From Thermoplasmata archaeon (GTDB taxonomy: Archaea; Thermoplasmatota; E2; JACPAO01; JAHFTW01): a DNA stretch of 64,000 bases. A program made the position numbers and the translations under genes. The first letter of the stretch is position 1. Every line of letters begins with the position of its first letter. Below are positions 34 to 21,040 of the stretch, piece by piece. The notes beneath the pieces are model-generated. The model saw nothing but the letters and a program-made list of their open reading frames with translations, searched no databases and was not told where the DNA came from. The DNA is taken from the NCBI GenBank assembly GCA_034667725.1, contig JAXDQS010000001.1, positions 192,001 through 256,000 on the forward strand, read 5' to 3'.

Positions 34-3000
34 TTGCCCCAGAGGCACGGCCCTGCCGCGAACCTGGGGAAAGTCGGTGTTGCCTTGCCTGTCCGGGACC
101 GTCCCATCGCCGCGATGCTCGCCGTGGCCTTCCTCGCCCAGGCGTTGGCCCTGCCGTTCTCGTTCGTGGTGGCCCCCGTCGACGCCCAGGCGCCCCCGCC
201 CCCGCTCCCGGTCAGCCCCGCCTTCGGCGCCTACGGCAGCTCCACCTGGGTCCAGTACACCCTGCCGGCGCCCGCCCAAGGCGGCGAGCCGTCCATCGGC
301 GTCGCCCACGGCCTGGACGGCGGCACGACCGCCATGGTGCAGCCCCGCACCTCCGAATGGAGCGTCGCGTGGGACGACGCCGTCCCCGCCGTGGCGACCT
401 ACACCGACGTGACCTCGCCGTTCTCGCTCCCGCTCGGCTTCGACCCCATCCTCTACACCAGCCCCGAGACCGGCCGCACCTGGGCCGGCGAGCTGGAGGT
501 CCCCGCCCTGGTGGCCGGCGCCCCCTCCACGGTCGGCAACCCCGTCCTGCCCCCCAACAGCTGCCTCAACATCCCGCCGACCCCGACCGTCCCCGGCGTC
601 CACGGCAGCCGCACCATCCTGGTCTGCAACAGCGCCGCCACCACCTACGCCGGCTGCAGCAACATGTCCTACACCGACGACAACGGCGCCAACTGGGTCC
701 CCATGGTCGACCCCTGCTCGCTGCCCTCCTGGGACCACCAGAGCATCGGCGCCGGCCCCTGGGCGGCGCCCGTCCCCGCCCTCGCCAGCTACCCGCAGGC
801 GGTCTACTACTGCGCCCAGCAGGGCTACTTCGGCACCTCGCTGTGCTGGATCTCCTACGACGGCGGCCTCAGCTTCGTGCCCACCGAAGGCGCCCCCGAC
901 CAGACCGGCGTCTGCTCCGGCCTGCACGGCCACGTCCGCGTCAGCCGCGTCGACGGCACCGCCTACCTGCCCTACAAGAGCTGCGGCGGCCTCACCGGGT
1001 TCGCGGTCACCACCGACAACGGCGCCACCTGGAACATGCGCACCATCCCGTACGCGGCCACCGGCACCGGCTACTTCGACCCCTCCATCGGCATCGCAGC
1101 CGACGGCACCATCTACGTCGGCATGGCCGAGGAAGGCAACCCCGGCATCGCCGGCGCGGACCCCGGCGCCTACATCTCCGTCAGCCACGACAAGGGCGTC
1201 ACCTGGGACGTGCTGGGCACGAACGTCGCCGCCCTGGCCGGCCTGGAGCGCGCCCAGTTCGCCGAGGTCATCGCCGGCGACCCCGACCGCGCCGCCTTCG
1301 CGTTCCTCGGCTCCCCCTCCAACGACCCGAGCGACACCTGCGCGGCCGCCTCCGGCAGCCACGTCTGGCACATGTACGTCGCCATGACCTACGACGGCGG
1401 CCTGAGCTGGGACGTCCAGCAGGGCACGACCGACCCCGTCCAGCGCGGCGGCATCTGGCCCGGCGGCGGCGGGGCCTCCTGCCGCAACATGCTCGACTTC
1501 AACGACATCGCCCTCGACGTCCACGGCCGCGTCCTCGTCGCCTTCACCGACGGCTGCACCGGCCCCTGCACGGCGGCCGGCGGCACGTACGCCACCTCCA
1601 CCGACAACGACGTCGCCGTGCTGCGCCAAAGCACCGGCCGCGGCCTGTTCAAGAGCGAGGACATCCTGTTCCCCGACCCGCCGGCGCCGTGCGCGCCGCT
1701 CACCGACCCGCGCGTCGCCTTCCTCGACCCCGGCGACGGCGACTTCATCGAGACGAGCCTCCCCACCTGGACCGGCGAGGTCGACCGCCAGCCCCACGGC
1801 AACCCCCTCGCGGCGCACGCCAACGGTCCCTACTTCGGCAAGGTCGGCGCCGACATCCCCCTGAACGGCACCGCCTCCTGCTTCACCAGCGCGCTCGACG
1901 GCTACGGCTGCGAGTGGACCTCCCTCAGCGCCGTCGCCCCCAGCTTCACGCCGAGCGCCTACGACTGCCTCCCCGACATCGTCTACGGCGCCGTGGGCGT
2001 CTACCTCCTGCAACTCAAGGTGACGGACCTGGCCACCATGGCCACCGCCATCGACCTGACCCTCGTCACCGTCACGGACGCCGTGCCCGCGGTCGCGCGC
2101 TGCCCCGCCTCGCCCCTCGACAGCATCCTGGTGGACGACGACCCGGACCTCGACCGCGCCACCTTCGGCGACCCGGTCCAGCACCCCGCCGGCGTCCAGG
2201 AGATCGAGTGCTTCGGCGCCCGCTACGACGCCGGGGCCCAGGAGCTCGAGCTGTTCCTCGACGTGGCGGACCACCTCAAGCCCACGCACGGCGCCCTCAC
2301 GGTGGCCGACGACGGCGCCATGGAGACCTACTGGTTCCGCTTCACCCCGAACTGGGGCACCTACGCCGGCATCGAGCAGATCCTCGAGGTCGAGTGGTAC
2401 GGCCCCAGCAGCGCCACGCCGCTCGCCTGCTTCCTGGCCGCGTCCCCGATGGCAGGGGCCGGCGGCGCGGGCTTCCGCGCCAGCAGCCCCGACCCGGGCC
2501 TCGGCAACGTGATGTGCGACCCGACCCGGCCCTACCCCGCCGTCTCCTGGGCCGGCGACCGCCTCACCGTCGAGATCCTGATGTCCGACCTCGGCGCCGC
2601 CGCGGCCGGTGACCTGGTCGAGGGCCTCTACGCCTGGACCTGGCACGAGGAGACCGACTTCTCCTGGAACGCAGCCCCCAGGACGCACGTGGGCGTCTAC
2701 GGCTACAGCCCCAACCCGCTGGGCGGCTTCGGCAGCGGCACCGGCCGCACCACGGCCCTCGGCTTCGACGGCACCAACCAGGTCTGCATGCCGTCCACGG
2801 CCACGTGCGACGGCTTCTACCACGACGACGACTTCAGCCCCGACTGCCGCCGCGCCGACGTCCGGTTCCTGACCGCCACCACCATCGGCCTCGTCGGCTC
2901 CTGCAACCCTGCGACGCCGACGACCTGCTGCGCGGCGCCCGCCGGCGGCCTGCTCACGGGCCCCGGCGCCGGCCTGTCCGCGCCCAGCCCTGGCCCGCTC

Positions 3001-4221: not shown

Positions 4222-4350
4222 GCCGCCGAAGCCGGGTACGGGTCCCACCAGACTTGTTCGATGGGGTTATCAAAAGGTGCCGTCATCGAAGGCCGCCCCG
4301 CCCAGAGAGGGACACCCAGGTCCCTCCTGGCAGTACCGAGGCTTCCGCCC

Positions 4351-7300
4351 ATGCCATCGACTTCCCGCGCGCGCACGTCATTCATCCTGGCCCTCCTCCT
4401 GGTGGCGGGCGCCTTGCCTGCGCTGCCGGTGGCCACCGCGGCCGCGCCGGTCGTGACGAGCGCCAACCTGCTGGACGAGGACAACAACGGCCACCTCGAC
4501 GCCGTGCTGCTGACGTTCGACCAGGCCATCCGGTCGGACAGCGTGCGGCCCAGCGACTGGACCCTCGGCTCGGCGGTCGCGCGCAGCGTCGAGCGCCAAA
4601 GCAGCACCCAGTTCAAGCTGTTCTTCCAGGAGGCGCTGGCCTTGGACGGCAACTCCAACGCCATCAACATCGCCTACACCCGCGAGGCCGACCAGCCGCT
4701 CGAGAACCTGGCGACCCCCTTCGAGGACTTCACGGCCAGCACTGTGCCCGCCTCCGCCAAGAAGGACATGGCCAAGCCCATCCTGATGGCGGCCTACGCC
4801 GTCGAGGCCACCAACTACATCGTCGCCGTCTTCAGCGAGGCCGTCACCGACAACGCGGGCGCCATCCTGACCCATGACGAGTTCGTCCTCACCGCGGGCG
4901 GCGCCGGCGCCCCCGCCATCGACACCACCGTCGCCGTCACCGCCCTTGGCTCCCCGGCCCGCGTGTTCCGCATCCCCCTGAACGCCGCCTGGACCACGGC
5001 CCAGCTGGCGCACGCCACCAAGCCCACGCTGGCGATCTCCGGCACCAACCTGGTCAAGGACCTTGCCACCCCCGCCAACAACAACCCCACCGGCATGGCG
5101 GCCGTCCCCGTCGGCGCGCCCTTCATCGAGCGCGTCATGGCCAACCCCGGCGACGACCTCGTGGTCGTCGAGTTCAACGGCCCCGTGGCCGACTCGACCG
5201 GCACCGCCCCGCTCCCGGCCACCTCGAGCGGCGACCTGACGCTGCGCTTCCAGGAAGGCTCCGGCGGCGGCGCCATCGTCACCACCGACATGGTGAACCC
5301 CGTCTTCTCCGACCGCGTCCAGCTCCGGGTCGACGCCCCGCTGCGCCCCGCCGACTTCGCCGCCGGCACCATCAGCAAGATCGTCGCCCAGACGGACAAG
5401 GTGTTCGCGTGGAAGGGCGCCTCCAGCGTCGCGAGCTACAAGGTCCCCGCCGGCGCCGCCGGCAACCTGGCCGACGCCGACGTCTACACCAACCCCTACC
5501 CGACCCGCCTGGAGACGGTGGACCGCGACCTCAACGGCTGCATCGACGCCATCCAGATGACCTGGAACGACGACATCCTCGACGCCAGCCTGGCCGCCAG
5601 CACCGGCTGGGTCGTCGTCTTCCCCAAGAAGGCCTCCGGCACCCCGCTGCCCACCACGCCGCCCGCGCCCGGCATCGTCGGCGCCACCCTGGTGAGCGCC
5701 ATCACCGGCGCCGGCGTCTCCCCGACCCTGTCGCCCGGCGTGGACGACCGCGTCACCTTCCTGACCTTCACCGAGACCGACGCCGCCACCGGCTGCGACC
5801 TGTCCCTGCCGGCCCCCCTGGTGGGCAGCACCGGCCCCGCCGGCGTCCGCCTCCTGCCCCGCGTCTCGCACTGCGACGGCCTCGACTCCGGCTGCACCGG
5901 TCTCAGCCCGACCGACCGCGCCGGCCGCGGCATCGGCGCCTCGCGCGGCGCCTTCAACGACGCCGGCGTCCTGTTCCGCCTCCCGGTGATCGACAGCGCC
6001 CGCCCCGTTTTGATGACGGCGGCGACCCGCGACCTGCCCTCGTCCCCCGACGGCCAGGTCGACCAGATCCTCCTCAGCTTCTCGGAGCCGATGAAGCTCG
6101 GCACCCTCAAGCAGGCCCAGTGGAACGTCCGCGTGCCCGCCAACCAGGCCCAATGCCCGGTCCCCGCCAGCACGGCCTACACCGTCACCTCGGTCGGCTC
6201 CGCCTCCGGCACCTCCGGCGACACCGAGTCCCTGCTCCTGCTGGGCATCCAGCCCTCGGGCACCCCGGACACCGGCTGCATCCTCGACATCGCCTACGGC
6301 ACCACGCCCAACGCCCTCGAGAGCAGCAACGGCCAGGTCCTGCCCGCCATCCCGGCCAACAGCCTCATCCTGACGACCGCCACCGCCACCGCCGGCGGCG
6401 CCAACAGCATCACCGCCGCCGCCACCAACTTCGCCACCGCGGGCGCCCTCACCGGCATGCGCGTCGACGTGAGCCGCGCCGGCACGCCGCTCGGCTCGTT
6501 CACCGTGACCGGGGTCGCCGGCACCACCCTGACGTTCTCGCCCGCCGTGGCGGCCGCCAGCGCCCCCATCGCCGCGGGCGACGTCGCCACGGTCTACCGC
6601 GAGCGCGACGGCGCCGGCCCCGTCCTCTTGGACGGCCGGCTCGTCGGCGCGGTCGGCTCCCGCTTCGCCACCGCCACCTTCAGCGAGGCGGTCCTCGGCG
6701 TCAACGGCAACGCCGTCACCAACACCGACCTGACCTACAAGAACAACGGCGCGGGCGGCGCCTCCGGCATCAGCTGCGTCGCCACCCCGAGCTACACCTC
6801 GGGCACCTGCACCCCCGACCCGGCCGTCACCACGAACCCGGCCCAGTTGTCGCTCACCCTGAACGCGGTGCTCGCCGGCGGCGACGTCGGCACGGGCAAG
6901 GACTGCGTCCAGATCGTCAACTACATCCCGGACGAGAACAGCCTGAACCCCGCCAACCCCGGCGTGCGCGACGCCGCCGGCAACGTCGGCCAGCCGCTCG
7001 AGCCCTCGGGCCCCTGCCGCATCTTCTCCACGGGCGGCACCGTCGCCACCGTGCTCGCCATCGAGACGCTCGACACCAGCAACCCGCCCAACGGCGCCAT
7101 CGACGCCATCCGCGTCACCTTCACGGGCCCCGTCAACGACGACTTCACCGATGGCGTCGCCAAGTGGAAGGTCAAGTTCGGCACCACCACGGCCACCATC
7201 AACACCGTCCAGAGCGGCGGCAACTGCGGCGGCAGCACGCTGACCCCCGACGTCGCCAACGACGCCGTGGTGTTCCTCTGCATCGCGGAGCTCACCGACA

Positions 7301-10300
7301 CCTCCGACCCGGCCAACCCGCTCATCCCCAACACCGGCGCCCTGCCCCTGGTGTCCTACTCGGGCACCCTGCTGGCCGGCGCCACCGACGGCCTGCCGGT
7401 CGCGACCTTCACGGACCGCGCCGCCACCGACGCCGCCCTGCCGGTCCTGATCACCGTGCGCGGCGGCGCCGGCCGCAACACCGTCGAGCTGCGGTTCTCG
7501 GAGGACGTCGTGGACGCCACCACCAAGGGCCCGCTCAAGGCCTCGAACTTCCTCTACTCGAACGGCAACGGCGGCTCCTCGACCTGCTCCAGCGGCGCCT
7601 CCAACATCGTGGACGTGCTGCCGGTCACCGGCTTCAACGACCGCTTCACCGGTGTGCTCAACACGCCGGCCGGCCAGCCGGGCCTGCACTACGACGACAT
7701 CGTCGGCTGCCCCACCGTCGCCAGCCGCGACGAGGTGCGCGCCCTGGCCTCGAGCATCATCGAGAAGGTCGGCCTGCGCGCCATGACCGACAGCACCCCG
7801 CGCGACATCCAGGACATCTTCGGCCCCGACATCCTGTCGGCCCGCTTCATCGACGCCCCAGCCCAGGCTGGCGCCGTCACGGGCGCGGACGGCACCATCG
7901 ACGCCGTCGAGGTCCGGTTCCGCGAGTACGTCTCCGACGCCGCGGCCGCCTTCGGCACCAGTGCCACCGTCACCGGCCAGTGGGCCGTCAAGGTCAACGA
8001 CGGCAGCCTCAAGACCCTCAAGGTCAAGGCCGTCGTCTCGAGCCAGAACGGCGTCCTCGGCGACAGTTGCACGGACACCCAGGCCCGCCCCCTCATCCTC
8101 TGGCCGGGCGAGGTCCAGCCGCCCACCAGCGGCCCCTCCAGCGTCAACGGCGTGGACGACGACACCCTGTTCCTCTGCCTGGAGAACACCGTCGGCGTCT
8201 CGACCCAGGGCACCCTGGGCCTCGGCACCGGCATGGTCGGCACCCTCAGCTACGCCGCCGCCAACCCGACGGCCCGCATCAAGGACCGCAGCGGCAACGG
8301 CTTCGCCGACATCACCCTCGGCAGCGCCCGCACCGTCACCGACGGCGCCCGCCCCGTCGTCCTCAACACCTGCCGCCCCGAGGTCACCCCAGCCCTGCGC
8401 TGCACCGGCGTGTCCCCCGAGTCGGCCGACCTCGACAACGACGGCCTCGTCGACGCCCTGCGCGTCGTGCTGTCCGAGCCCGTGAAGGACGACACCTACA
8501 AGCAGGTCGAGTGGGACCTCGGCTCCGGCTTCGCCATCACCGGCATGGACACCGGCGTCACCGTCGACGACGCCACCATCTTCCTCAAGTTCAACGAAGG
8601 CGCCACGCCGGACACCGGCCGCGGCCGCGCCTCCCAGCCGGGCCTGCCCGACCTGACGTTCAGCTCGACCGGCACGATGGCGGACCGCGCGGGCAACCGC
8701 ATCCGCGCCGTCCAGTCGGGCGCGTGCGGCGCCGCCACCGACACCCACTGCGCCGACGAGCGCGACGGCGTCGAGCCCGTGGTCGTGCGCTCCCAGGCCG
8801 AGGTCGGCTCCGACCTCGTCACCATCGCCCTCAGCGAGCCCGTCCAAGGCACCGGCCCGGTCGCCAGCGGCCGCCCCATCACCACCAGCGACATCGCCTA
8901 CCAGAACAAGGCGGGCGCGGGCGACGGCGCCACCGGCATCGTGGCCATCTCCCATGTCGCGGGCGAGTCGGTCCTCACCATCAAGCTCGACAAGAAGGTC
9001 ACCGAGTTCGACCGCCTCAACGACCGCTTCGTCTTCGTGACGGGCAGCATCAAGGAGGCCCAGTGCACGGTGTCGGCCACGACGCCCTCGTGCTACCGCC
9101 AGCTCGCCATGACGCGCCTCTTTGTCCCCATCGCCTTCGCCGGCGGCGCGGACCCCAAGCCGGCCGCCATCGACGACCTGGACGCCCCCGCCGAGGACGT
9201 CACCGCGACCTCGGTCCGCCTGACCTGGACCGCCCCCGACGACACCGACCTCGCGAGCTACCAGATCTACTTCTGCGAGTGCTCGTTCGCCGGCACCATC
9301 CCGACCGGCGCCCTGACGCCCCCGACCTCGGTCGTCATCCCGACCCCGGACCCCGGCGAGGCCCAGGAGGTCGTCATCACCGGCCTCACCACCGGCAAGA
9401 CCTACAACTTCGTCATCCGCGCCATCGACAACTCCGGCAACACCGCCGAGCTGTCGAACGTCGCGACCGCCCTCGTCGAGGCCCCGGACACCGAGGCGCC
9501 CGACATGGTGTTGGCCCTCCAGGACCTCGCCGCCAGCACCCCGCTGGGCTCCGTCGCCCTCGTCTGGGACGCCCCCGGCGACGACGGCGACCAAGGCACC
9601 GTGGCCGGCTACCGCATCGCGGTCGCCGACCGCCCGATCGCGGCCAGCGACTTCGAGGACTTCGAGACGACCGACTACTCGCTCAACCCGGCCGGCCTTG
9701 CGGACGCGGGCGACACCCAGCGCGCCACCATCTTCGGGCTCATCCCCGGCGACGAGGTGTTCGTGTACATCCTCGCGTACGACGACGCCAGCCCGCCCAA
9801 CGAGTCGCCCCTCAGCGGCGCCGTCCGCGCCACCGTCGGCGGCACCACCACCGACCTGGCCGACCCCGGCCCCATCACCGACCTCACGGCCACCGCCGCC
9901 ACCGACAGCACGGTGGAGCTGGAGTGGCGCGCGCCCGGCGACGACGGCCTCTCCGGCGGCCCCGTCACCGGCTACGACGTCTACTACAGCACCGCGCCGT
10001 TCGCGTCCTCGACCCGCCCGTCCGTGCCCCGCGCCTCCGACGTCACGCTGTCGCCCCGCACCCCCACGGCCGCCGGCCTGAGCCAGCGCGCCACCGTCGG
10101 CGGACTGGAGTCCGACACCGTGTACTACTTCATGGTCCTGGCCCGCGACGACGCGACCAAGACCAGCGCCTCGAACGTGGTCAACCGCGCCACCCTCCCC
10201 GGCGTCGGCGAGCTGACCATCGACGACCTGTTCGCCGCCAACAAGGAGCTCAACGAGAACCTCGAGGTCACCCACGAGGACGGCATCAACATCGTGAGCT

Positions 10301-10980: not shown

Positions 10981-10988
10981 CCCATCCT

Positions 10989-11176
10989 GCCGAGCCGGGG
11001 GCCGCCGCGCGCGTGAGCGCGCAGGACCGAGCACGCCCGCCTGCGCGAGCATCGCGAGCGCACGGGCCGAGGGCGCGGCCCCCTCGCCGTGGGGGCGCAG
11101 GGGGCGAAGCCCCCGCGCAGGCGGAACGAACCGCAGTTCGTTCCGAGCCGAACCTGTTCCTTGTCGTTTTAAATAC
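10989..11176 (+). repeat. Structured intergenic repeat, copy 1 (runs into the TATA box of the next gene)
   Basis: Aligns with 15883-16077 (direct) and 20878-21040 (inverted). Hairpins: GCGCGC-GTGA-GCGCGC, GGGGC-GAA-GCCCC, CGGAACGAAC-n4-GTTCGTTCCG. Confidence 0.9.
11167..11176 (+). promoter_or_regulatory. Archaeal TATA box
   Basis: TTTTAAATAC in an otherwise very GC-rich context, upstream of ATG 11250. An identical 10-mer occurs at 16068. Confidence 0.7.
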
Positions 11177-11249
11177 TTCCCGGGATGGAGCGGACCAAGC
11201 ACCGGACGCCGGACCTTAGGGCCCGGCTTCCGCCCGCAGGTTGATCCCC

Positions 11250-14200
11250 ATGGCCGCCGGTCCCTCCTCTAAACCTCACGCCTTCCGCAGCGTCGCCGTC
11301 TTGACGGCGCTCCTGGTGGCCGTCCTGGCGCCGCTGATTCCGCAGGCTGTCGCCGACGGGACCAGCCTCAGCATCGCGGTCGGTCCCCACTTCGAGATCG
11401 ACACCTCGAGCCCGACGTTCCAGGGCTGCCCCGGGTCGGACGCGACCAGCCCGCAGCTGCGCGCGCGCCCCGACGACGCGGTCGTGCAGACGCGGACGGT
11501 CCGCGTCTTCAACGGCGCCGCCGCCACGCAGACGCAGGTGACGTTCCGCTACACGGTGGCGGGCCCCGGCGCGCCGCCGGTGGACCGCTCCCTGACCTGG
11601 GACGAGGAAGGCTCCTCGGCGGCGGGCTGGACCGTGCAGGCCATCAACACCGGCAGCACGGCGGGCTCCTTCCGGGACCTGGTGTTCAACTCCGGCTCGC
11701 TGGTCCCCGGCGCCGCCGACTTCACCATCGCGTTCCGCGTCCCCACCACCGCCGTCGGCGACGCCGGCACCGCCACGCCTGACCTGTACCCCATCAACGT
11801 GCGCACGGCCGGCGGCGGCGACTTCGAGTCCACCCCGCAGCCGACCAGCTTCTGCATCCGCGTCGACAACAAGGCGCCCAAGCTCACGGACGCCGTCACC
11901 CGCGACACCGACGCCGACGGCCGCATCGACGCCTACGTCCTCACCTTCGACGAGCCCATGGACACGGCGGCCTCCGCCGCGCAGTTCGAGGTCAAGAGCG
12001 TGACCGACCCCAGCCCCTACCAGCCGCTGGGCTTCCGCGCCTCGCACACCTTCCGCCCCGGCGCCGGCACCAACCTGGGCGAGAAGACCGACGCGCTGCT
12101 GGACCGCCAGGCCGTCCTCAACCTCGCGCCCGGCTACTCCTACGACACCGGCGAGAAGCCGGACGTCACGTACCCGAAGGGCGGCGCCGTCGGCGTCATC
12201 CAGGACCAGGCCGGCAACAAGCTGGGCAAGATCGTCACCTCCGACGTCTCGGAGCGCGACGGCGCCAAGCCGGTGCTGGTGAGCGCCTACGGCTTCGACG
12301 GCGCCACCAACATCATCCTCACCTTCAGCGAGAAGGTCTCGGGCTCGCGCGCCGACAAGAACCTCGCCCTCGCGGACCTGTTCTACGAGGACTCGCTGCA
12401 GACCAAGAACTGCATCGGCGCCACCGACGGCGTCTCGGCCGAGCTGGGCGAGCCCAAGCCGAGCCCCGCGCCCGCGCCCGCGACCACCTTCATCATCCCG
12501 GTGCTCACGAGCCGCGCCGGCGCCGGCTGCACCAGCGTCCGCGTCGGCGACGGCGACTCGCACCCGTCCGCCGGCGACCGCATCAAGTTCTTCGACACTG
12601 GAAACTCGTGCGTCGGCCGCGACTTCGACCCGTGCGGCGCGCCCGTGTACGACGTGGCCAGCCTGCACGCCGTCCCCGCCCGCAACGCGCCGGTCGTCGT
12701 GACCGGGCCGTTTGTGAAGGAGGCCGAGGTCAACATCGACTCGTTCCAGTTGACGCTGCGCTTCAACGGCCCTGTCAGCTCGGCCCGCGGCGAGGACCAG
12801 CCCATCCGGCTGGAGGACCTCGACGTGGTGGCGGCCGACGGCACCGGCCAAGGCCCCGGCGGCATCGTCAACGTGCTGCACCGCCCCGGCTCCGACAAGG
12901 CCATCATCACCCTCGACCGCCGCACCCGCCCGACCGACGTGGACGACACGCCGGCGCGCATCAACATCCAGTGCAACGCGATCAAGGGCACCGGCCTGCC
13001 CAGCTTCGTCCCGTGCGGCGACCCGGACAACGACCGCTCGCCCGACGTCAACATGGTGGACCACACCCCGCCCGCCATCGTGGCCGCCGGCACCTACGAC
13101 GGCAACCGCGACGGCTACATCGACGGCGTCAGCCTGCTGTTCAACGAGCCGGTCGACGACGCCACCTTCTGCATCCAGAAGAACGTCGGCGTCCAGCCGC
13201 GCACCATCGCGCACGACTTCGGCGCCACCCCGGACAACATCTGCAACAACCTGGACATCCTGGAGATCGCGTCCATCCCTGGCCCCTACACCTTCGACAC
13301 CGACAAGGTCCAGAACGACGCGCAGGGCATCATCAAGTTCCCGCAGCGCGCCCCGCCGACCTTCAAGCCGGACACCAGCGAATACCTGCCCTACTCGATC
13401 AAGACCACCGGCGACGGCCTGTTCGCCGACCTGGCCCACCCCGAGCCGCCGACGCCCGGCGTCGAGCCGTGGCAGACCGCGAACCTGATGCTGCGCATCT
13501 CGAAGGACCCGGTCACCTGCCCCGACCCGAACATCCCGTGCGCCACCACGCTCACGGTCGCCGACTGGGCCCCGCCCGTCGTGCTGTCCGCCCAGACCGT
13601 GGACACCAAGCCCGCCGTCAAGCCCTCGGACATCGGCGCCCTCGGCTCCGACCCCGTGCCCGACCTCGAAGGCGACGGCTTCCTCGACGGCTACCGCGTC
13701 ACCTTCTCGGAGCGCATCGACGACACCTCGTTCAACGCCGCCGAGTGGCAGGTCGCGGGCTACAAGGTCACCGGGATGCGCACCTACGAGCCGCACGTCA
13801 CCAAGAAGGCCGACCAGAAGGCCCTCAGCAACGACACGGTCATCACCATCCAGTTCGAGCCCAGCAAGGTGGCCGACACCGACGCGCGCCCCGAGCTGCA
13901 CTACCTCGGCTCGACCCAGGCCCGCGCCGGCCTCGACGACCTCGTCGGCAACCGCCTGCTGCCCTTCGGCTCCATCGGCGTCAACGAGGCGGACGACGCC
14001 GGACCCGTCATCGTCGGCATCGCCGCCATCGCGGGCCGCGCCGACGTGACGCTGCTGTTCAGCGAGCCCGTCGACGACGGCAGCCACGGCGCCTTGTCGC
14101 GCCGCGCCCTCCAGTACGGCAACGTCAACGCCAACAAGGTCGCCGAGAGCGCCGCCTCCGGCATGGCCGACCAGGACGCCGTGGTGCACAAGCCGGCCAC

Positions 14201-15788
14201 GCGCTCGGTCGTGATCACCCTCAATGCCCCGCTGAGCACCGGCGACATCAACGACGACACCATCGCGGCCCAGCCGAACTCGGTGTTCGAGACCTCGCCG
14301 ACGGTGCAGGCCAAGAAGGTCGCGTCCTACAAGCCGCACGGCATGGACTTCGCCCGCGACGGCGTGCCCCCGGGCAACGTCACCGCCTCGGTCGTCGCCC
14401 CGCTCATCACCGCCAACTCGGTGACGCTGCAGTGGACCGCGCCCGGCAACGACGGCACCTCGACCCTGCCGGCCCCCGCCCGCGACGGCAAGACCTACGC
14501 CAACGTCACCGGCTACCTCGTCAAGGTGTCCTCCGAGCCCATCACGCCGGAGAACTTCCTGTCGCCGGCCGCCCCGGGCACCATCGCCTTCGGCTACTCC
14601 GACGCCGCCGCCAAGCCGTTCACCGACGGCTCGCGCAACGAGATGGAGCTGGACGACCTGGTCGCCGTGTTCAACCCGGACCTCGGCGCGCTCGCCGGCC
14701 CCGGTGTCATGCAGCAGGTGACGGTGCGCGGCCTGAAGTCCAACACGCTGTACTACTTCGCCGTGGCCGCGTTCGACGACTCCGCCCCCGAGCCCCAGCT
14801 TGGCGGCATCGGCACCGGCACGGTCAGCGCCACCACGGCCGTCGACCCGACGCCGCCCATCGGCACCCCGGTCATCACCTCGAGCACGCACCGCCCCGAC
14901 GTCACCCGCCCCAGCAACAGCAAGACCGCGATTTTCGACTGGACGCCGGCGCGCGACGACGAGTCGCTGGTCACCTACCACACCGCGGTCAACCACGACC
15001 CCGGCTACGTCGCCACCGCGACCGACGAGATGACCACCCGCCTCAGCAAGGAGGTCGTCGTGTCCACCGAGGGCGTCTGGACCTTCCACGTCGCCGCGTG
15101 CAGCGGCGGCGGCTGCGGCGCCACCGGCCACTACAACTTCGGCGTCGGCTACTCGCCGCTCGACAAGCAGGAGATCCGGGTCGCCAACCAGTACGTCAAC
15201 TTCACGGCCGTCCGCGACGACAAGGCGAAGTCCACCACCATCACGTGGGAGCTGCCGCCCGAGGAGTTCCTGCCGTCGCGCGCCAACCTGGAGGCCGTCG
15301 TGGTGTACCGCCTCGACTGCGAGCCCAGCGCCGGCTGCAAGCCCACCGAGGTCCAGCGCGTCAACGGCGACTACACCAACCTCAAGACCGGCTCGGTCAC
15401 GGACACCTCCGACAAGGCGACGCTGGCGTCGGCCTACCGCGTCGACATGGTGTTCGCCTCCGGCCAGGAGCAGGCCGAATCCCTCAGCGGCTTCTCCAAG
15501 GTCCGCGACGTCACCCCGGCCGAGTCCAACCTGATGTGGATCCTCATCGCCATCGGCGCCGTCGTGCTCCTGGCCATCGTGGGCTTCGTCGTGTACGCCA
15601 TGCGCCGCAAGGGCCCCGGCGCCGCCGAGGCCTGGACCGAGGACCAGCCGGCCGGCACCGACCCGACCAGCGGCCTGCCGGCGCACGACGTCCGCTGCCC
15701 GAGCTGCCAGACGGCGTTCCAGGCGGTGGGCACGCTGCCGTTGCAGATCACCTGCCCCAACTGCGGCGTCGGTGGCCTGCTCCAGTAA
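11250..15788 (+). CDS. Giant cell-surface protein paralogue 2: Ig-like repeats, FN3, TM, cytoplasmic zinc ribbon
   Basis: Signal peptide MAAGPSSKPHAFRSVAVLTALLVAVLAPLIPQAVA. Motifs DTDADGRID, DGNRDGYID, DLEGDGFLD. FN3-like LQWTAPGNDG. TM LMWILIAIGAVVLLAIVGFVVYAM-RRK, then CPSC-x15-CPNC. Confidence 0.9.
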   Translation: MAAGPSSKPHAFRSVAVLTALLVAVLAPLIPQAVADGTSLSIAVGPHFEIDTSSPTFQGCPGSDATSPQLRARPDDAVVQTRTVRVFNGAAATQTQVTFRYTVAGPGAPPVDRSLTWDEEGSSAAGWTVQAINTGSTAGSFRDLVFNSGSLVPGAADFTIAFRVPTTAVGDAGTATPDLYPINVRTAGGGDFESTPQPTSFCIRVDNKAPKLTDAVTRDTDADGRIDAYVLTFDEPMDTAASAAQFEVKSVTDPSPYQPLGFRASHTFRPGAGTNLGEKTDALLDRQAVLNLAPGYSYDTGEKPDVTYPKGGAVGVIQDQAGNKLGKIVTSDVSERDGAKPVLVSAYGFDGATNIILTFSEKVSGSRADKNLALADLFYEDSLQTKNCIGATDGVSAELGEPKPSPAPAPATTFIIPVLTSRAGAGCTSVRVGDGDSHPSAGDRIKFFDTGNSCVGRDFDPCGAPVYDVASLHAVPARNAPVVVTGPFVKEAEVNIDSFQLTLRFNGPVSSARGEDQPIRLEDLDVVAADGTGQGPGGIVNVLHRPGSDKAIITLDRRTRPTDVDDTPARINIQCNAIKGTGLPSFVPCGDPDNDRSPDVNMVDHTPPAIVAAGTYDGNRDGYIDGVSLLFNEPVDDATFCIQKNVGVQPRTIAHDFGATPDNICNNLDILEIASIPGPYTFDTDKVQNDAQGIIKFPQRAPPTFKPDTSEYLPYSIKTTGDGLFADLAHPEPPTPGVEPWQTANLMLRISKDPVTCPDPNIPCATTLTVADWAPPVVLSAQTVDTKPAVKPSDIGALGSDPVPDLEGDGFLDGYRVTFSERIDDTSFNAAEWQVAGYKVTGMRTYEPHVTKKADQKALSNDTVITIQFEPSKVADTDARPELHYLGSTQARAGLDDLVGNRLLPFGSIGVNEADDAGPVIVGIAAIAGRADVTLLFSEPVDDGSHGALSRRALQYGNVNANKVAESAASGMADQDAVVHKPATRSVVITLNAPLSTGDINDDTIAAQPNSVFETSPTVQAKKVASYKPHGMDFARDGVPPGNVTASVVAPLITANSVTLQWTAPGNDGTSTLPAPARDGKTYANVTGYLVKVSSEPITPENFLSPAAPGTIAFGYSDAAAKPFTDGSRNEMELDDLVAVFNPDLGALAGPGVMQQVTVRGLKSNTLYYFAVAAFDDSAPEPQLGGIGTGTVSATTAVDPTPPIGTPVITSSTHRPDVTRPSNSKTAIFDWTPARDDESLVTYHTAVNHDPGYVATATDEMTTRLSKEVVVSTEGVWTFHVAACSGGGCGATGHYNFGVGYSPLDKQEIRVANQYVNFTAVRDDKAKSTTITWELPPEEFLPSRANLEAVVVYRLDCEPSAGCKPTEVQRVNGDYTNLKTGSVTDTSDKATLASAYRVDMVFASGQEQAESLSGFSKVRDVTPAESNLMWILIAIGAVVLLAIVGFVVYAMRRKGPGAAEAWTEDQPAGTDPTSGLPAHDVRCPSCQTAFQAVGTLPLQITCPNCGVGGLLQ

Positions 15789-15800
15789 AGCCGAGACGGC

Positions 15801-15830
15801 CCTTTTTCCTTTCCTTCTCCCTGTTTTCGT
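15801..15830 (+). terminator. Pyrimidine/T-rich putative archaeal terminator
   Basis: CCTTTTTCCTTTCCTTCTCCCTGTTTTCGT begins 12 nt after the stop at 15788. Confidence 0.45.
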
Positions 15831-15882
15831 CCCCACTGGACACAGATTCCACAGATTCGCTGGAAGCTGGCGGGTCGAGCGT

Positions 15883-16077
15883 CGAGCCGGGGGCCGCCGT
15901 GCGCGTGAGCGCACAGGACGAGCGGGCCGGCCCGTGCGAGCGAAGCGAGCGCGCCGGCGCGAGGAGCGGCCCCCAAGCCGGGGGGTCGCAGGGGCGCAGC
16001 CCCCGTTCCCAACAGGCGGGACGAACCGCGCAGCGTGTTCGTCCCGAGCCGAATCTGTTCCTTGGCGTTTTAAATAC
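15883..16077 (+). repeat. Structured intergenic repeat, copy 2 (runs into the TATA box of the next gene)
   Basis: Homologous to copy 1 with compensatory stem changes: GTGCGC-GTGA-GCGCAC and CGGGACGAAC..GTTCGTCCCG. Confidence 0.9.
16068..16077 (+). promoter_or_regulatory. Archaeal TATA box
   Basis: TTTTAAATAC about 36 nt upstream of ATG 16113. Confidence 0.7.
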
Positions 16078-16112
16078 CCCCAGGATTGGATGCCTTACCC
16101 CGCTGGTGGCGT

Positions 16113-19100
16113 ATGGTCAACCGAAAATCCGCGTCCCTCCCCTACGTGCTGGCTTTCCTGATGGTGTTCTCCATCTCGCAAGCCATCGTGCCCGAGGCGG
16201 AGGCAGGCGTCGCCCCCGCTGGCCTCATGAGCGTCTCCGTCGAGCCCAGCTTCACGACCAACGTCATCATGGTCAAGCAGGGCATCAGCGCCGAGCGCCT
16301 GGTGCGGGTGTCGCAGGGCGACCCGCTCAACCCGATGACGACCATCGAGTTCGTCTGGTTCATGCGCGACGACACTTCGACGCCGGCCTGCCGCGGCCCG
16401 CCGCGCGACCTGTGCGCCACGGCCGTCAAGTTCGACTGGATCAAGGAGACCAGCTACGCCATGCGCCCCGGCTGGAAGGTCGAGGCCGCCACCTCCACGG
16501 CCGCCAAGATCCTCCGCTTCGTCTCCGACGGCACCCAGGAGCTGCGCTCGGGCACGCCGCAGGACTTCAACGTCGCCTTCAGCCAGCGCGGCGCCGCCCA
16601 GGACGACGAGTACCACATCCAGGTCCGCGGCTACTGCGGCGCCGAGTGCCAGCCCGGGGTCGCCTTCGAGACCACCTGCGCCAGCACCCGCGCCCCCGAG
16701 TTCACCTGCATCCACACCAACCCGCCCTTCACCGGCGCCGCCCCGATCCCCGCGGCGGACTGCAACGCGCCCTGCGGCCAGCTGCCGAGCCTGGTGCTGC
16801 GCATCGACAGCGTGCCCCCGGACCCGCCGGCGGTCATCATGCAGGACATCGACCACAACGGCCACATCGACCGCTTCGTGGCGGACTTCCCCAAGAAGCT
16901 CGACGCCAAGTCGTTCGACGCCCGCCTGTTCACCCTCACCGCCCGCGGCCGCCTGTTCGGCTCCAGCCTCACGGACGCCGGCTACACCATCCAGAACGCC
17001 TACTTCGTCAACCCGGACAACCCGGTGCGCGTGGTCTTCCTGGTCAACGAGATGCCGTACTACGACACCGGCGACCAGGTCAACCTGCGCTACGCCGGCA
17101 CCAGCCTGCGCGACGAGGCCGGCAACCCGCTGCGCGGCATCAACGTCCAGGCCACCGACCGCGCCCCGCCGGTCATCGTCGCCGCCTACGGCCTCCAGGG
17201 CTACGACGGCGTCCACGTGACCTTCAGCGAGCCGGTCGTCGGCACCGGCAACGCCCAGGACCCCGCCACCGGCGTCGGCCTGCAGGACCTGCTGTTCTTC
17301 GACGACGGCGGCAGCGCCCCCGACAGCAAGGTCGGCTGCCCCGCCGCGAGCCCGTGCGTCCTGAGCATCGCCGACTCCCGCTTCGGCGCCATCACGCACC
17401 AGCCCGGCCCCCGCACCGGCCACCAGGCCACCATCAAGACCTCGATCAACCCGGTCACGAGCACGCCCTACACCTTCGGCCCCAACGACGTGCACCCGCT
17501 CAAGGGCGACATGCTCGGCGTCGCCTCCAGCGGCGCCGCCTGCGCCCCCGGCGAGGACCCGCCCTGCGACTCGAAGATCAAGGACGCGGCCGGCCTCAAG
17601 ATGTGGCACCCGCTCACGGCCCCCGCGTCCGTCCGGCACATCACCCGCCCCCTCCTGGTGCGCGCCGAGGTCGACATCGGCTCCGACGCCCTCAAGCTCT
17701 GGTTCAACGGCCCCGTGCGCGCCGCCAAGGAGCCCGGCGTCACGACGCCCCAGCCGATCTCGGTGTCCAACATGGACATCGTGACGGCGGCCGGCACCGG
17801 CGTCGGCCCCCAGGGCCTCATCGGCGACTACTTCCGCGCCGTCGACCAGGACTTCATCGTCGTCAAGCTCGACGCCAAGGCCCGCCCCACCGACGTCGAC
17901 GCGACCCCGACCTCGATCCGCCCGCACTGCAAGAAGATCGTCGGCAGCGGCCTCCCCGAGACCAACGACCAGGCGTTCCTGCCGTGCGACAACCCGGACC
18001 TGTTCTACGAGCAGGAAGCCCGCGTCAAGGGCACCGGCACCTTGGACGCCAAGGGCCGCGACCACGACCTGCCGTCGCCCGGCGCCGCCTTCGTGGACGA
18101 CACGCCGCCGCGCATCGTCCAGGTCCGCACCGTGGACACCGACCACAACGGCTGGCTCGACGGCCTCGAGCTCACCATGAGCGAGCCCGTGGACGACGTC
18201 ACGTTCTGCTCGAACGCCAACACCGCCCCCAACTTCTGCCCCGACTCCTGGACCCCGGTCGGCGGCATCTCCCAGGTCGGCCTCGTGATGATGCAGAACC
18301 TGCGCGCCACCGACGACCGCTCGCAGGAGTGCCTCGGCCTCTACCGCTGGGAGACCGGCCTGGTGGTCAACGACAACGTCGGCATCATCAAGGCCATCAA
18401 CGTCGAGCGCAGCCCCACCGGCGAGTACATCGTGACCAGCCGCGACTGCGTCGAGCGCTACTTCAACCAGGACACCGGCATCCGCATGGACACCGGCCAC
18501 CTGCCGACCTTCACCACCACGGCGCGCGGCCTGTTCGCCGACCTGTCGGTGCCGGAGAACCGGATGCCGCAGTACTGCCAGCTGCAGCGCCTCACCCACT
18601 TCCACCACCCGGACGCCGCCACCACCAAGGACTGCGGCCTCCTGGCCAGCACCAAGGCGCAGTACACCGCCCCCGTCTCCGACGGCGCCCCGCCGGTCGT
18701 CATGGCCGCCCGCACCGTGGACACGCCCGCCGTCAACAAGGACGGCATCCCGGACAAGCCCGCCGTGAACCTCTGGGGCGACGGCCGCATCGACGGCTAC
18801 CGCCTCACCATGAGCGAGTCCGTCAAGGACTCCACCTTCGACCGCCGCGACTGGCTGGTGCAGCGCCTCGGCGCCGCGCAGGCCCCGATCCACGAGGTCA
18901 ACGGCTTCCGCAGCTACGACCTCAACGAGACCCTGGGCGCGCTGCGCTCCAACGACCGCGAGCTCACGGTGCTGTTCAACCCGGACACGGTGCCCGACAC
19001 GGACGCCCGCCCCGAGCTGACCTACCGCCGCGACCCCGACAGCAAGGGCCTCGCGGACATCGTCGGCAACGTCATGGTGGACTTCGACGAGTTCGCCGTG

Positions 19101-20876
19101 GTCGAGCAGGACGACTCCCGCCCCGTCATCGTGGGCATCGAAGGCTACGTCGGCGAGCGTGTCCTGACCCTCCACTTCAGCGAGCCCGTGGACGACGGCG
19201 CCCAAGGCAAGCTGGTGTCGGAGGACTTCTTCTACCACAACAACGACGCGACCACGAACCCCGGCGGTGTTGCCGGCAAGGCGGTGTCCAACCCGGAGAC
19301 GGGACAGGCGGTCAACGTCATCCACGTCCCCGACGTCGACTGCACCGGCAACCTCGAAGAGGACGCCGACGGCTGCAACGAGAAGGCCATCATCCCGCTC
19401 GACCGCGCCCTCACCAACTCCGACCTGACCACCGACCGCATCAACGCGGAGAAGGACACCATCTACGAGAAGGCCCCCACCGTGGTGCCGGTGCAGCGCA
19501 AGGCGGTGCCGAACTTCCAGCAGAAGCTGTCGGTCGGCGCCGACGTGACGCCCCCGGCCAAGGTCACGGACCTGCGCGTGCAGACCGACGCCGTGCTCGC
19601 CAACTCGGTGCTGCTGGCCTGGACCGCGCCCGCGGACGACAGCCTGGCCGGCGGCGCCGTGACGAGCTACGTCTTCAAGGTGTCCACCAGCGCCATCGAC
19701 CCCGCCGGCTTCGACGCCTTGGTCAACCCGAACGGCATCACGCCCGAGTTCGAGCCCGCCGCCATGGCGGCGGTCAACCAGACGCAGACCCTGCGCCTCG
19801 TCGGCTTGAACCCGACCACCCAGTACCACTTCGCCATCCGCGCCGTGGACGAGGCGGGCAACGCCGGCGGCGTCTCCAACGCCGTCACGGCGCTCACCTC
19901 GCGCGACGCCACGGCGCCCGTCGGCACCCTCACGGTCTCGAGCACCAGCCACAAGGCCGGCGAGACGGCCCCCAAGGTGCAGGGCATCTTCTCGTGGAAC
20001 AAGCTGGAGGACCCCGAGTCCACCGTCGTGTACCGCTACGCCCTGACCGGCAGCCCCGCCTACCAGGTGCTGGCCGCCGACAAGTCCGTGACCGGCACCA
20101 GCGTCACCGTCGACATCCCCTCCGAAGGCGACTGGACGTTCCACGTCGCGGCCTTCAGCGGCGGCGGCTCGACCCCGACGGCGCACTTCTCGTTCGGCCG
20201 CGGCTCCCCCGTGCTGGCGGCGGACGCCATCGCCGCCGCCAACGACCGCCTCAAGGACAACGTCGAGATCGTCCGCAAGCCCGTCGAGATCCAGGACGGC
20301 GTCGAGGTCGACCTCAACACCATCACCTGGACCCTGCCGCCCGAGTCGGACCTGCCCGGCACCCTCGAGGCCATCGAGATCTGGCGCCTCGACGCCGGCA
20401 TCCCGACCCTGGTCACGACCCAGCCCGGCAGCTACAGCGAGCTCAAGAGCGGCAACTTCACGGACGTCACCCAAGGCGCGGACGAGAACTCGCTCTACCG
20501 CGTCAACATGGTGTTCGCGCAGGACCAGCGCCAAGCCGACCCAAGCGTCTCCGGCCAGTTCAAGGCCCTCCAGAACCAGACGCCCGGCGAAATCCCCGCC
20601 TGGGTCTACGTCCTGGCAGGCATCGCGCTGGCGTTGATCATCGCGGGCATCATCATCTACTTCGTGCTGCGCGGCCGCCAGAAGGCCGCCGCGGCCGGAG
20701 GGGTGGCGTACTCGTGGGAGTCGGCCGACCCGGAGGCCCTCGGCATCGACGAGGCCACCGGCCTGCCGGTCCACGAGGTCAAGTGCCCGTCGTGCAACAA
20801 CCCGTTCCAGGCGGTGGGCGTCCTGCCCCTGCCGGTGACGTGCCCGACGTGCCAGACGACGGGCATGCTGGAGTAA
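16113..20876 (+). CDS. Giant cell-surface protein paralogue 3: Ig-like repeats, FN3, TM, cytoplasmic zinc ribbon
   Basis: Signal peptide MVNRKSASLPYVLAFLMVFSISQAIVPEAEA. Motifs DIDHNGHID, DTDHNGWLD, GDGRID. FN3-like LAWTAPADD. TM WVYVLAGIALALIIAGIIIYFVL-RGR, then CPSC-x15-CPTC. Confidence 0.9.
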   Translation: MVNRKSASLPYVLAFLMVFSISQAIVPEAEAGVAPAGLMSVSVEPSFTTNVIMVKQGISAERLVRVSQGDPLNPMTTIEFVWFMRDDTSTPACRGPPRDLCATAVKFDWIKETSYAMRPGWKVEAATSTAAKILRFVSDGTQELRSGTPQDFNVAFSQRGAAQDDEYHIQVRGYCGAECQPGVAFETTCASTRAPEFTCIHTNPPFTGAAPIPAADCNAPCGQLPSLVLRIDSVPPDPPAVIMQDIDHNGHIDRFVADFPKKLDAKSFDARLFTLTARGRLFGSSLTDAGYTIQNAYFVNPDNPVRVVFLVNEMPYYDTGDQVNLRYAGTSLRDEAGNPLRGINVQATDRAPPVIVAAYGLQGYDGVHVTFSEPVVGTGNAQDPATGVGLQDLLFFDDGGSAPDSKVGCPAASPCVLSIADSRFGAITHQPGPRTGHQATIKTSINPVTSTPYTFGPNDVHPLKGDMLGVASSGAACAPGEDPPCDSKIKDAAGLKMWHPLTAPASVRHITRPLLVRAEVDIGSDALKLWFNGPVRAAKEPGVTTPQPISVSNMDIVTAAGTGVGPQGLIGDYFRAVDQDFIVVKLDAKARPTDVDATPTSIRPHCKKIVGSGLPETNDQAFLPCDNPDLFYEQEARVKGTGTLDAKGRDHDLPSPGAAFVDDTPPRIVQVRTVDTDHNGWLDGLELTMSEPVDDVTFCSNANTAPNFCPDSWTPVGGISQVGLVMMQNLRATDDRSQECLGLYRWETGLVVNDNVGIIKAINVERSPTGEYIVTSRDCVERYFNQDTGIRMDTGHLPTFTTTARGLFADLSVPENRMPQYCQLQRLTHFHHPDAATTKDCGLLASTKAQYTAPVSDGAPPVVMAARTVDTPAVNKDGIPDKPAVNLWGDGRIDGYRLTMSESVKDSTFDRRDWLVQRLGAAQAPIHEVNGFRSYDLNETLGALRSNDRELTVLFNPDTVPDTDARPELTYRRDPDSKGLADIVGNVMVDFDEFAVVEQDDSRPVIVGIEGYVGERVLTLHFSEPVDDGAQGKLVSEDFFYHNNDATTNPGGVAGKAVSNPETGQAVNVIHVPDVDCTGNLEEDADGCNEKAIIPLDRALTNSDLTTDRINAEKDTIYEKAPTVVPVQRKAVPNFQQKLSVGADVTPPAKVTDLRVQTDAVLANSVLLAWTAPADDSLAGGAVTSYVFKVSTSAIDPAGFDALVNPNGITPEFEPAAMAAVNQTQTLRLVGLNPTTQYHFAIRAVDEAGNAGGVSNAVTALTSRDATAPVGTLTVSSTSHKAGETAPKVQGIFSWNKLEDPESTVVYRYALTGSPAYQVLAADKSVTGTSVTVDIPSEGDWTFHVAAFSGGGSTPTAHFSFGRGSPVLAADAIAAANDRLKDNVEIVRKPVEIQDGVEVDLNTITWTLPPESDLPGTLEAIEIWRLDAGIPTLVTTQPGSYSELKSGNFTDVTQGADENSLYRVNMVFAQDQRQADPSVSGQFKALQNQTPGEIPAWVYVLAGIALALIIAGIIIYFVLRGRQKAAAAGGVAYSWESADPEALGIDEATGLPVHEVKCPSCNNPFQAVGVLPLPVTCPTCQTTGMLE

Positions 20877-20877
20877 C

Positions 20878-21040
20878 GCGGACAACCGCCTGGGGCGTTT
20901 GTCCGCCCTCCAGCGGGGGCTTTGCCCCCGCACCCCCACGGCAAGGGGGCCGCGCCCTCGGCCCGTGCGCTCGCTGGCGCTCGCGCAGGCGGGCGCCCTC
21001 GGTCCTGCGCGCTCACGCGCGCGGCGGCCCCCGGCCCGGC
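20878..21040 (-). repeat. Structured intergenic repeat, copy 3 (inverted)
   Basis: The reverse complement of 20914-21040 is nearly identical to 10989-11115. An analogous terminal hairpin GCGGACAA..TTGTCCGC sits at 20878-20906. Confidence 0.9.

Follow-up and report, generated by a model that had tools for sequence, protein, structure and literature searches.

A 64,000-nucleotide stretch of a Thermoplasmata archaeon genome (GenBank assembly GCA_034667725.1, contig JAXDQS010000001.1, positions 192,001 to 256,000 of the forward strand; hereafter the window) opens with four very large genes for secreted proteins, and the question it raises is what such proteins do at the surface of an archaeon from a lineage without a cultured member. 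The first-pass annotation of this DNA regarded them as a family of adhesion or signalling receptors rather than surface-layer (S-layer) proteins. In the present analysis, genes 2, 3 and 4 emerge as three old paralogues that probably span the membrane once and end in a predicted zinc ribbon, and they are tentatively read as the main coat proteins of the lineage. A membrane-anchored, immunoglobulin (Ig)-rich archaeal coat is a known design; what is new is the cytoplasmic module. This order of uncultured soil archaea keeps a predicted folded ribbon of invariant length, conserved more strictly than any extracellular part.

Sequence and topology of genes 2–4

The first 21 kb of the window has a GC content of 72% and carries four co-oriented reading frames on the + strand (34-4221, 4261-10980, 11241-15788 and 16086-20876 in the open-frame list), whose stop-free translations of 1395, 2239, 1515 and 1596 residues sum to 6,745 aa. 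The GC content at third codon positions (GC3) is 0.98 in each, which, given the composition of the genome, marks them as coding frames, and their N-termini are signal-like; the initial count of about 6,700 aa of secreted protein in four co-oriented frames was correct. Likely starts of the three paralogues are ATG 4351 (gene 2, MPSTSRARTSF...), ATG 11250 (gene 3) and ATG 16113 (gene 4), the last agreeing with a 1587-aa protein on record (P0005). In each protein, the sequence after the start resembles a Sec signal peptide, with basic residues, then a hydrophobic run and then an Ala-x-Ala-type site. The description of the proteins as Cys-rich was overstated: Cys makes up 1.3-1.6% of genes 2–4, in an even number in each, and four of these residues are the ribbon ligands.

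An alignment of genes 3 and 4 covers almost the whole of both (E 2e-171, 33% identity). Gene 2 has several internal modules in common with gene 3 (E 1e-18), and its transmembrane (TM)-plus-tail region matches the ends of its paralogues (E 2e-13). Gene 1 showed no similarity to any of the three (best E 0.48), so that of the proposed four-gene array only genes 2–4 proved to be true paralogues. By sequence comparison, genes for surface proteins of more than one kind lie together at this locus, and three of the four, not all of them, form the paralogous set. The features of these genes are as follows.

4351..10980, + strand: gene 2 (P0002 residues 31-2239), the largest paralogue (GC3, translation, hydropathy)
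9172..10185, + strand: three tandem fibronectin type III (FN3) domains of gene 2, residues ~1638-1975 (Pfam fn3 42.1, 14.5 and 45.1 bits)
10213..10575, + strand: membrane-proximal FN3-like domain of gene 2, common to genes 2–4 (alignment with its two paralogues and ten homologues)
10591..10662, + strand: predicted TM helix of gene 2, then RRR (Kyte-Doolittle peak 2.91)
10873..10977, + strand: predicted C-terminal zinc ribbon of gene 2, H-x-V-x-CPxC-15-CPxC-7-COOH (translation, tail comparison)
11250..15788, + strand: gene 3 (P0003 residues 4-1515; translation, alignment, hydropathy)
15534-15602, + strand: predicted TM segment of gene 3 (hydropathy)
15681-15785, + strand: predicted ribbon of gene 3 (translation, alignment)
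16113..20876, + strand: gene 4 (P0004 residues 10-1596; translation, protein on record)
19563-19883, 19923-20210 and 20220-20516, + strand: FN3 domain, Ig-like domain, and short helix with membrane-proximal FN3-like domain of gene 4 (AlphaFold2)
20598..20693, + strand: predicted TM helix of gene 4, residues 1505-1536, then RGRQK (AlphaFold2 model, hydropathy)
20694..20873, + strand: predicted cytoplasmic tail of gene 4, with the ribbon at 20766-20873 (homologue alignment, AlphaFold2)

Apart from the signal peptide, strong hydrophobicity is confined in each protein to one segment near the C-terminus, which is followed by RRR, RRK or RGRQK. Under the positive-inside rule, the basic cluster after this segment places the bulk of the protein outside the cell and the C-terminal end in the cytoplasm. 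Hydropathy, charge distribution and the TM helix of the AlphaFold2 model thus make a type I topology with a cytoplasmic tail probable for genes 2–4. Alignment, hydropathy and tail comparison likewise bear out the juxtamembrane domain, single TM segment and conserved cytoplasmic zinc-ribbon end that had been noticed initially, including the probable intracellular position of the C-terminal domain.

The C-terminal tail

Beyond the TM segment, genes 2–4 continue for ~60-105 aa and finish with a common ending, H-x-V-x-CPxC-x3-F-x-AVG-x2-PL-x3-CPxC-x3-G-x-L-x; only gene 2 ends in Lys, and the PGF-CTERM motif is not found at the C-terminus of any of them. In gene 2 the linker between TM segment and ribbon is acidic, rich in Pro and Ala and ~70 aa long; that of gene 4 contains the conserved sequence AYSWES-NPE-LGIDEATGLP. 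A profile of the last ~320 residues, compared with 1.84 billion representative proteins, gave 839 matches, 72 of them below 1e-30. Among the 150 matches listed, 144 were new representatives, and 92 of these 144 had a TM segment, 56-135 further residues and a terminal ribbon. The tail family tallied here has at least 105 diverged members, of which 104 preserve the CxxC-15-CxxC spacing and 97 have exactly 7 residues after the last Cys.

Conservation along the chain is very uneven. The TM-plus-tail block of gene 4 has 70-95% identity with most homologues, compared with 20-48% for their ectodomain blocks; one exception is P0006, a close relative of 80% identity whose ectodomain blocks reach 68-81%. 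With ectodomains at 35-39% between orthologues, the proposed layout of a variable ectodomain and a constant cytoplasmic module is well founded. The gene 4 tail block is 45% identical to that of its paralogue gene 3 and 57% identical to that of its most distant homologue, and tails are in general nearer to their orthologues in other genomes than to paralogues in the same genome. Concerted evolution or gene conversion as the cause of tail conservation was rejected on this ground, as tails group by orthologue and not by genome; their lineage-specific character indicates that conservation reflects selection.

Curated zinc-ribbon models scored at best 16.8-20.9 bits against a cut-off of 30.3 (MJ0042-type / Zn_ribbon_4 PF13717). 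The tail nevertheless has the two CxxC knuckles of a generic zinc ribbon fold, modelled as four short strands, and we infer from its sequence that it is a zinc-binding ribbon. For annotation of further members we propose the signature H-x3-CPxC-x3-F-x-A-x-G-x2-PL-x3-CPxCG-x2-G-x-L-x-COOH.

A hidden Markov model (HMM) of the tail, run on all six-frame open reading frames (ORFs) of the genome, found the three genes only, plus an unrelated membrane protein on contig C12; the idea of duplicated spare gene ends lying behind GC-rich elements of the locus was rejected, as the same search gave none. The C12 protein (C12:50530-51690) is of the DUF4234 type and has two C-terminal zinc ribbons, the second of which (CPACKTQFQAV...CPKCG) resembles the ribbon of the giant proteins, at E about 1e-8 with the tail HMM. 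When the membrane-proximal domain, TM segment and tail of gene 3 were co-folded with those of gene 4, each with an orthologue alignment and in a run without controls, the score was 0.12 against a mark of 0.32, which speaks neither for nor against an interaction.

Phylogenetic distribution and evolution

All counts of distribution given here are from samples, and absence holds for the families searched. Among 41 relatives searched, each of the 24 genomes of the same family contained a match at E<=0.001, and, as we read the table of matches, at least 21 of the 24 cover the membrane-proximal domain and the TM segment. In a sample of the phylum, 10 of 301 genomes matched at E<=1e-12, all of them in the window's own order: 8/9 genomes of its own family and 1/1 of a sister family, with 0 in the other families searched. 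A pattern-based scan of genome contigs found six loci and is not a census.

In a tree of 96 C-terminal modules, gene 2 belongs to a clade of 10 rows with a Shimodaira–Hasegawa-like approximate likelihood ratio (SH-aLRT) support of 99, whereas genes 3 and 4 fall into two groupings (93 each) within a clade of 30 rows (99); the gene 3 group has 9 representatives. The order gene 2, gene 3, gene 4 is retained in two genomes of the same genus, G004 and G005. Three old, separate clades in a preserved order argue for three components rather than switchable variants. Compared with their G004 and G005 orthologues, the giant proteins are 35-39% identical, while a transglutaminase-like neighbour is 59% and an acyl-CoA dehydrogenase-like neighbour 79% identical; the distance between the first value and the last, a signature of surface exposure, indicates that the ectodomains evolve unusually fast. 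A further genome of the genus, G006, carries three tandem paralogues of ~1,520 aa with the membrane-proximal domain in common (C7:1610-15795, L021).

Promoters and expression proxies

Genes 3 and 4 are each preceded by the same promoter block.

11154..11176, + strand: promoter block of gene 3, TATA box TTTTAAATA at 11167-11175 (genome search, G004/G005 comparison)
16055..16077, + strand: promoter block of gene 4, TATA box TTTTAAATA at 16068-16076 (genome search, G004/G005 comparison)

This 23-mer occurs genome-wide only at these two genes, is conserved in G004 and G005, and is the sole part of the spacers conserved across genomes. Canonical TATA-like octamers are rare, with 12 in the 2.32 Mb of a genome of 71% GC, and the octamer TTTAAATA is found three times: at window 11168-11175 (gene 3), at 16069-16076 (gene 4) and at the thermosome gene (C10:42934, - strand). 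The archaeal character of the genome shows in its genes for a TATA-binding protein (217 bits) and for a group II chaperonin (618 bits). GC3 values of the giant genes, 0.980-0.984, lie above the genome's 95th percentile and close to that of the thermosome; a frame whose N-terminus suggests ribosomal protein L4 is also close. Together, the rare TATA box and the high GC3 suggest very high expression of genes 3 and 4.

Further TATA-like boxes are located upstream of the gene for the TATA-binding protein itself and of that for a secreted protein on C4, and another stands before a frame that presumably, from its N-terminus, encodes a CDC48-like ATPase. Canonical TATA octamers could mark the most strongly transcribed genes of the genome. 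Right after the stop codon of gene 3 and before the repeat that follows it, a T-rich tract (TTTTTCCTTTCCTTCTCCCTGTTTTCG, within window 15789-15835) resembles an archaeal oligo-T terminator; no comparable tract is found behind genes 2 and 4.

Ectodomain architecture

Pfam fn3 (PF00041) is the sole model to pass its cut-off in genes 2–4. Gene 2 scores 83.5 bits overall, with two copies above the cut-off and a weak third (14.5 bits) between them; gene 4 has one copy at 31 bits, and gene 3 one at 22-24 bits, just under the 25-bit cut-off. This agrees with the three, one and one FN3 modules counted at the outset. After its signal peptide, gene 3 comprises about ten beta-sandwich domains, one FN3 domain, an Ig-like domain, the membrane-proximal domain, the TM segment and the ribbon. 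Modules often start with D-x-(A/T)-P-P-V and have (F/L/M)-S-E-P-V at the end of the second strand; some have a DxDxDG-type loop. Big_5 (PF13205) on gene 2 (P0002:60-300) is borderline, at 21.5 bits against a cut-off of 23.6; the same family is on record for a gene 3 orthologue (P0037) and is the Atlas lead at 0.84.

The last 452 residues of gene 4 (1145-1596) were modelled with AlphaFold2 at a mean predicted local distance difference test score (pLDDT) of 84.7. In the model the chain runs from an FN3 domain through an Ig-like sandwich to a second FN3-like sandwich with a short helix packed on it, and then into a 32-residue helix corresponding to the TM segment, a disordered linker and a four-stranded ribbon of beta hairpins (pLDDT 67-76) on which the four cysteines sit. 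Foldseek and Atlas returned only generic tandem FN3 proteins for this model. For the remainder of the ectodomain (P0004:36-1150, alignment of 12 rows) the model is weak (mean pLDDT 59.5), all-beta and made of about seven sandwiches, and Foldseek returned just generic Ig strings (titin, FMG1B, Fabs); by features and shape, Atlas gave only Big_5/CopC and FN3 leads, under the useful score.

NCBIfam and PDB sequence searches of genes 2–4 yielded nothing further; a PDB profile search with the ectodomain alignment and a PDB sequence search with gene 2 gave no matches, and segment-wise Pfam scans of gene 4 were empty. Databases name proteins of this type "hypothetical protein" or "fibronectin type III domain-containing protein". 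A full-length match to a characterized family was sought in Pfam, NCBIfam and PDB sequences and none was found, so that the family, as the first reading of the locus had supposed, is uncharacterized and, beyond FN3, without a curated-family or solved-structure match.

Comparison with known systems

The closest described protein is PySLP of Pyrobaculum arsenaticum (Thermoproteota), a colossal Ig-domain S-layer protein that combines stalk and anchor in one chain (bioRxiv 10.64898/2026.08.21.746120). Both systems have a huge single chain with a signal peptide, a string of Ig-like domains as a stalk and a C-terminal TM segment, and in both the TM segment and tail are the most conserved part. PySLP and its relatives, however, end in a short, basic tail that in PySLP finishes with Lys, whereas the tail of the genes 2–4 family is ~60-130 aa long with a four-cysteine ribbon, which sustains the view that it is unlike known archaeal S-layer anchors; moreover, PySLP is one protein, not three tandem paralogues, and belongs to another phylum. 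The comparison is one of described architecture. In the literature searched, described archaeal surface-layer proteins end just past the membrane anchor, the coat being viewed as a passive exoskeleton, and no description of a zinc-ribbon tail on archaeal surface proteins was found there.

Within the same phylum, the cultured, S-layer-less Thermoplasmatales Cuniculiplasma and Oxyplasma possess a surface protein layer of ~20 nm whose proteins are unidentified (PMC12448462). This layer is likewise a dense protein coat on the membrane, but searches of other families of the class gave no member of the genes 2–4 family, and the two are probably not the same proteins.

For the tail, the nearest parallels are documented docking modules: the ribbon of GltJ binds MglB and its own linker, that of ZitP binds PopZ (PMC11135422), and the zinc ribbons of CdpC from Haloferax, Cys4 and Cys3His, bind FtsZ1 (bioRxiv 10.64898/2026.07.16.738847). 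As here, a small cytoplasmic ribbon is attached by a flexible linker to a membrane or membrane-associated protein; in those proteins the ribbon is N-terminal or on a small protein, whereas here it forms the C-terminus of proteins with giant ectodomains. The likeness is an analogy, as the tail scores 19-21 bits with Zn_ribbon_4 against the cut-off of 30.3.

Big_5/SbsA-type and FN3-rich giant proteins of bacteria have FN3 and, at a borderline score, Big_5 in common with genes 2–4 but not the TM-plus-ribbon ending. Long proteins of the representative library that lack the ribbon contain 5-19 copies of the Ig-like domain that precedes the membrane-proximal domain; we take these proteins to be bacterial from C-termini resembling secretion-sorting tails.

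Possible functions of genes 2–4

Tentatively, and with a likelihood that we place slightly short of even, we read genes 2–4 as the main membrane-anchored coat proteins of their lineage, in an S-layer-like or envelope-protein-layer system. Each protein would be exported through its Sec-type signal peptide and would form a rod of ~10-16 Ig-like, Big_5-like and FN3 beta-sandwiches, with the fastest-evolving N-terminal end facing outward and the membrane-proximal FN3-like domain resting on the membrane. A single TM helix would anchor it and leave the last ~60-130 residues in the cytoplasm, where the four-cysteine zinc ribbon of fixed geometry could act as a protein-docking knob, tying the coat to a conserved cytoplasmic partner or neighbouring tails to one another. 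The docking role is proposed by analogy, given that the ribbons of GltJ, ZitP and CdpC dock partners; high abundance, coat formation and zinc binding are likewise our inferences. Near-universal presence in the family, the preserved order of three old components, signs of strong promoters and codon bias, a rod architecture with an anchor and fast-evolving outer parts together favour a core structural envelope over accessory adhesins or sensors. If the proteins do form a coat, the envelope of a lineage without a cultured member would be identified, and the 35-residue ribbon would provide a bait for asking how such a coat joins the division, shape or motility machinery.

Several observations weigh against the coat interpretation. 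Coat formation is a prediction from sequence, and curated S-layer models in Pfam and NCBIfam gave no match at E<=0.01 for genes 2–4. S-layers usually consist of one or two proteins, which three paralogues exceed, and the 2-4 N-x-S/T sequons per protein are few for an archaeal S-layer glycoprotein. Gene 2 has no canonical TATA box and may be transcribed by read-through from gene 1. In G006 the ribbon is present on one of the three paralogues and the other two end 8-11 residues past the TM segment, which makes the ribbon a module absent from some family members and not obligatory for every subunit. Comparison of the G004 and G005 neighbourhoods revealed no conserved gene beside the array that hints at a partner, and the coat could instead consist of other giant surface proteins encoded in the genome. 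Giant open frames that are alternative envelope candidates lie at C3:291177-306113 (4978 aa), C1:96800-107029 (3409 aa, with Calx-beta repeats and ending in a TM segment and an Arg-rich tail) and C10:339693-345653 (1986 aa, with NPCBM_assoc/DUF11-like domains and ending in a TM segment and RRK). Despite the few sequons in the giant proteins, an AglB/STT3 oligosaccharyltransferase (C10:62577-65996, a frame of 1139 aa) has a GC3 of 0.984, among the highest of the genome.

The receptor view would have the ectodomain bind ligands, surfaces or cells and the TM helix pass this binding on to the ribbon tail, which would recruit or release an effector. A variable ectodomain on a constant cytoplasmic module is what it expects; neighbouring surface proteins with BNR-like and thrombospondin type 3 (TSP3) modules suit it; and the FN3-FN3-TM-tail layout resembles contactin and insulin-receptor stalks in Foldseek, though as a generic FN3 match. 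The zinc ribbon of GltJ is moreover a switch in a bacterial focal adhesion (PMC11135422). The step from this layout to a receptor rather than an S-layer protein, however, found no support. The tail consists of a 35-aa ribbon and a linker, with no recognizable signalling domain and just sub-threshold matches to generic ribbons, and no kinase, regulator or GTPase gene is conserved beside the array. The ectodomains are collinear orthologues, not shuffled binding modules, and the family is near-universal, with old orthogroups in fixed order and, for genes 3 and 4, thermosome-grade promoters and codon bias. Near-universal, fixed-order genes with strong promoters are unusual for accessory adhesins or sensors, and we consider receptors unlikely. 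Another proposal, which we also regard as improbable, keeps the coat and makes the tails its transmembrane link to a cytoplasmic filament, division or motility system, of integrin or GltJ type, each tail type docking a different partner or state; if it were true, it would be the first known example in archaea of a surface layer connected with the cytoplasm by a folded domain dedicated to that purpose.

Instead of a cytoskeletal link, the tail could also be a signal for biogenesis or placement, read at membrane insertion, clustering anchors by ribbon-ribbon contacts, targeting membrane regions or marking turnover by way of its fixed free C-terminus. The invariant distance to the C-terminus suggests recognition of the free end, tails differ by orthogroup and are not homogenized within the genome, and ribbon-less family members exist. 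Other surface proteins of the genome end in a helix with an Arg cluster, and together with three exosortase/archaeosortase-like genes this indicates that at least two anchoring routes coexist. Yet no gene for a processing enzyme or chaperone is linked to the array, and a 35-aa ribbon preserved across at least 105 members exceeds what a sorting signal needs, known ones requiring less; we hold this explanation to be quite unlikely. Far less credible, indeed very improbable, are alternately expressed surface variants, in which paralogues would be swapped by recombination between repeated spacers, for instance against viruses. Fast ectodomain evolution fits such a scheme, as do the spacers between genes 2 and 3 and between genes 3 and 4, which are 79% identical over ~200 nt in direct orientation, with a third repeat copy inverted. 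Against it, the three genes are old orthogroups whose grouping and order are preserved in other genomes, each of genes 3 and 4 is preceded by a promoter of its own, and the GC-rich repeat in the spacers occurs genome-wide but not at the orthologous positions in G004 and G005. A similarity comparison of the array and its immediate flanks, which did not include a scan for recombinase families, revealed no recombinase gene.

Gene 1 and neighbouring surface proteins

34..4221, + strand: gene 1 (P0001, 1395 aa), a surface protein unrelated to genes 2–4 (Pfam, PDB sequence search, pairwise comparison)

Gene 1 is composed of a signal peptide, a BNR/Asp-box propeller-like region, a long unassigned middle, TSP3 repeats and a C-terminal hydrophobic helix, and terminates in RRRPA, 6 residues beyond the TM segment. 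Pfam TSP_3 scores 90.6 bits, with at least three repeats, while BNR and BNR_2 stay below their cut-offs; residues 1213-1327 match COMP and thrombospondin among PDB sequences. G004 carries an orthologue at the same position (39% identity). Gene 1 resembles the subtilase next upstream, which has TSP3 repeats and the same kind of ending. The two belong to a run of surface genes, spanning C1:186715-192012 and window 34-4221, that encodes a transglutaminase-like secreted protein, the TSP3 subtilase, a small putative lipoprotein and gene 1.

The hydrophobic helix and Arg cluster with which gene 1 and the subtilase end may serve as a sorting signal that has no name yet. The PGF-CTERM model PF18204 has no match anywhere in the genome, which contains the three exosortase/archaeosortase-like genes mentioned above. 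Further along the window, a 1781-aa ORF (28883-34228, GC3 0.93) was described in the first-pass annotation as a repeat protein lacking both signal peptide and anchor.

The dispersed GC-rich repeat

Each of the three paralogues is followed by a copy of a GC-rich element.

10989..11120, + strand: repeat copy 1, GC-rich multi-hairpin (genome blastn)
15883..16005, + strand: repeat copy 2 (genome blastn)
20913..21040, - strand: repeat copy 3, inverted (92% identity to copy 1, opposite strand)

The observation that the same structured element stands behind every paralogue was accurate as to its presence, the third copy being inverted, but the element is a dispersed repeat and is not a part of the system. 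With blastn, the ~130-nt repeat has at least 14 copies in the genome, on contigs C1, C5, C6 and C10; those elsewhere are at C1:4657, C5:162124, C5:182199, C6:11111 and C10:4751, 22799, 86443, 109026, 127860, 138166 and 296537. Most stand 2-100 nt beyond the stop codon of an unrelated gene and have no fixed orientation; three overlap rough open-frame calls. Folding relative to shuffles (z -1.4 for copy 1, -1.4 for copy 2 and -2.3 for the third) is not clearly better, Rfam has no match at these elements, and the repeat is missing from the orthologous spacers in G004 and G005. A structured RNA as a locus-specific component was rejected on these grounds. By its distribution, the repeat is a genome-wide element present here incidentally, and its absence from orthologous spacers within the genus indicates that it is probably mobile or has recently spread.

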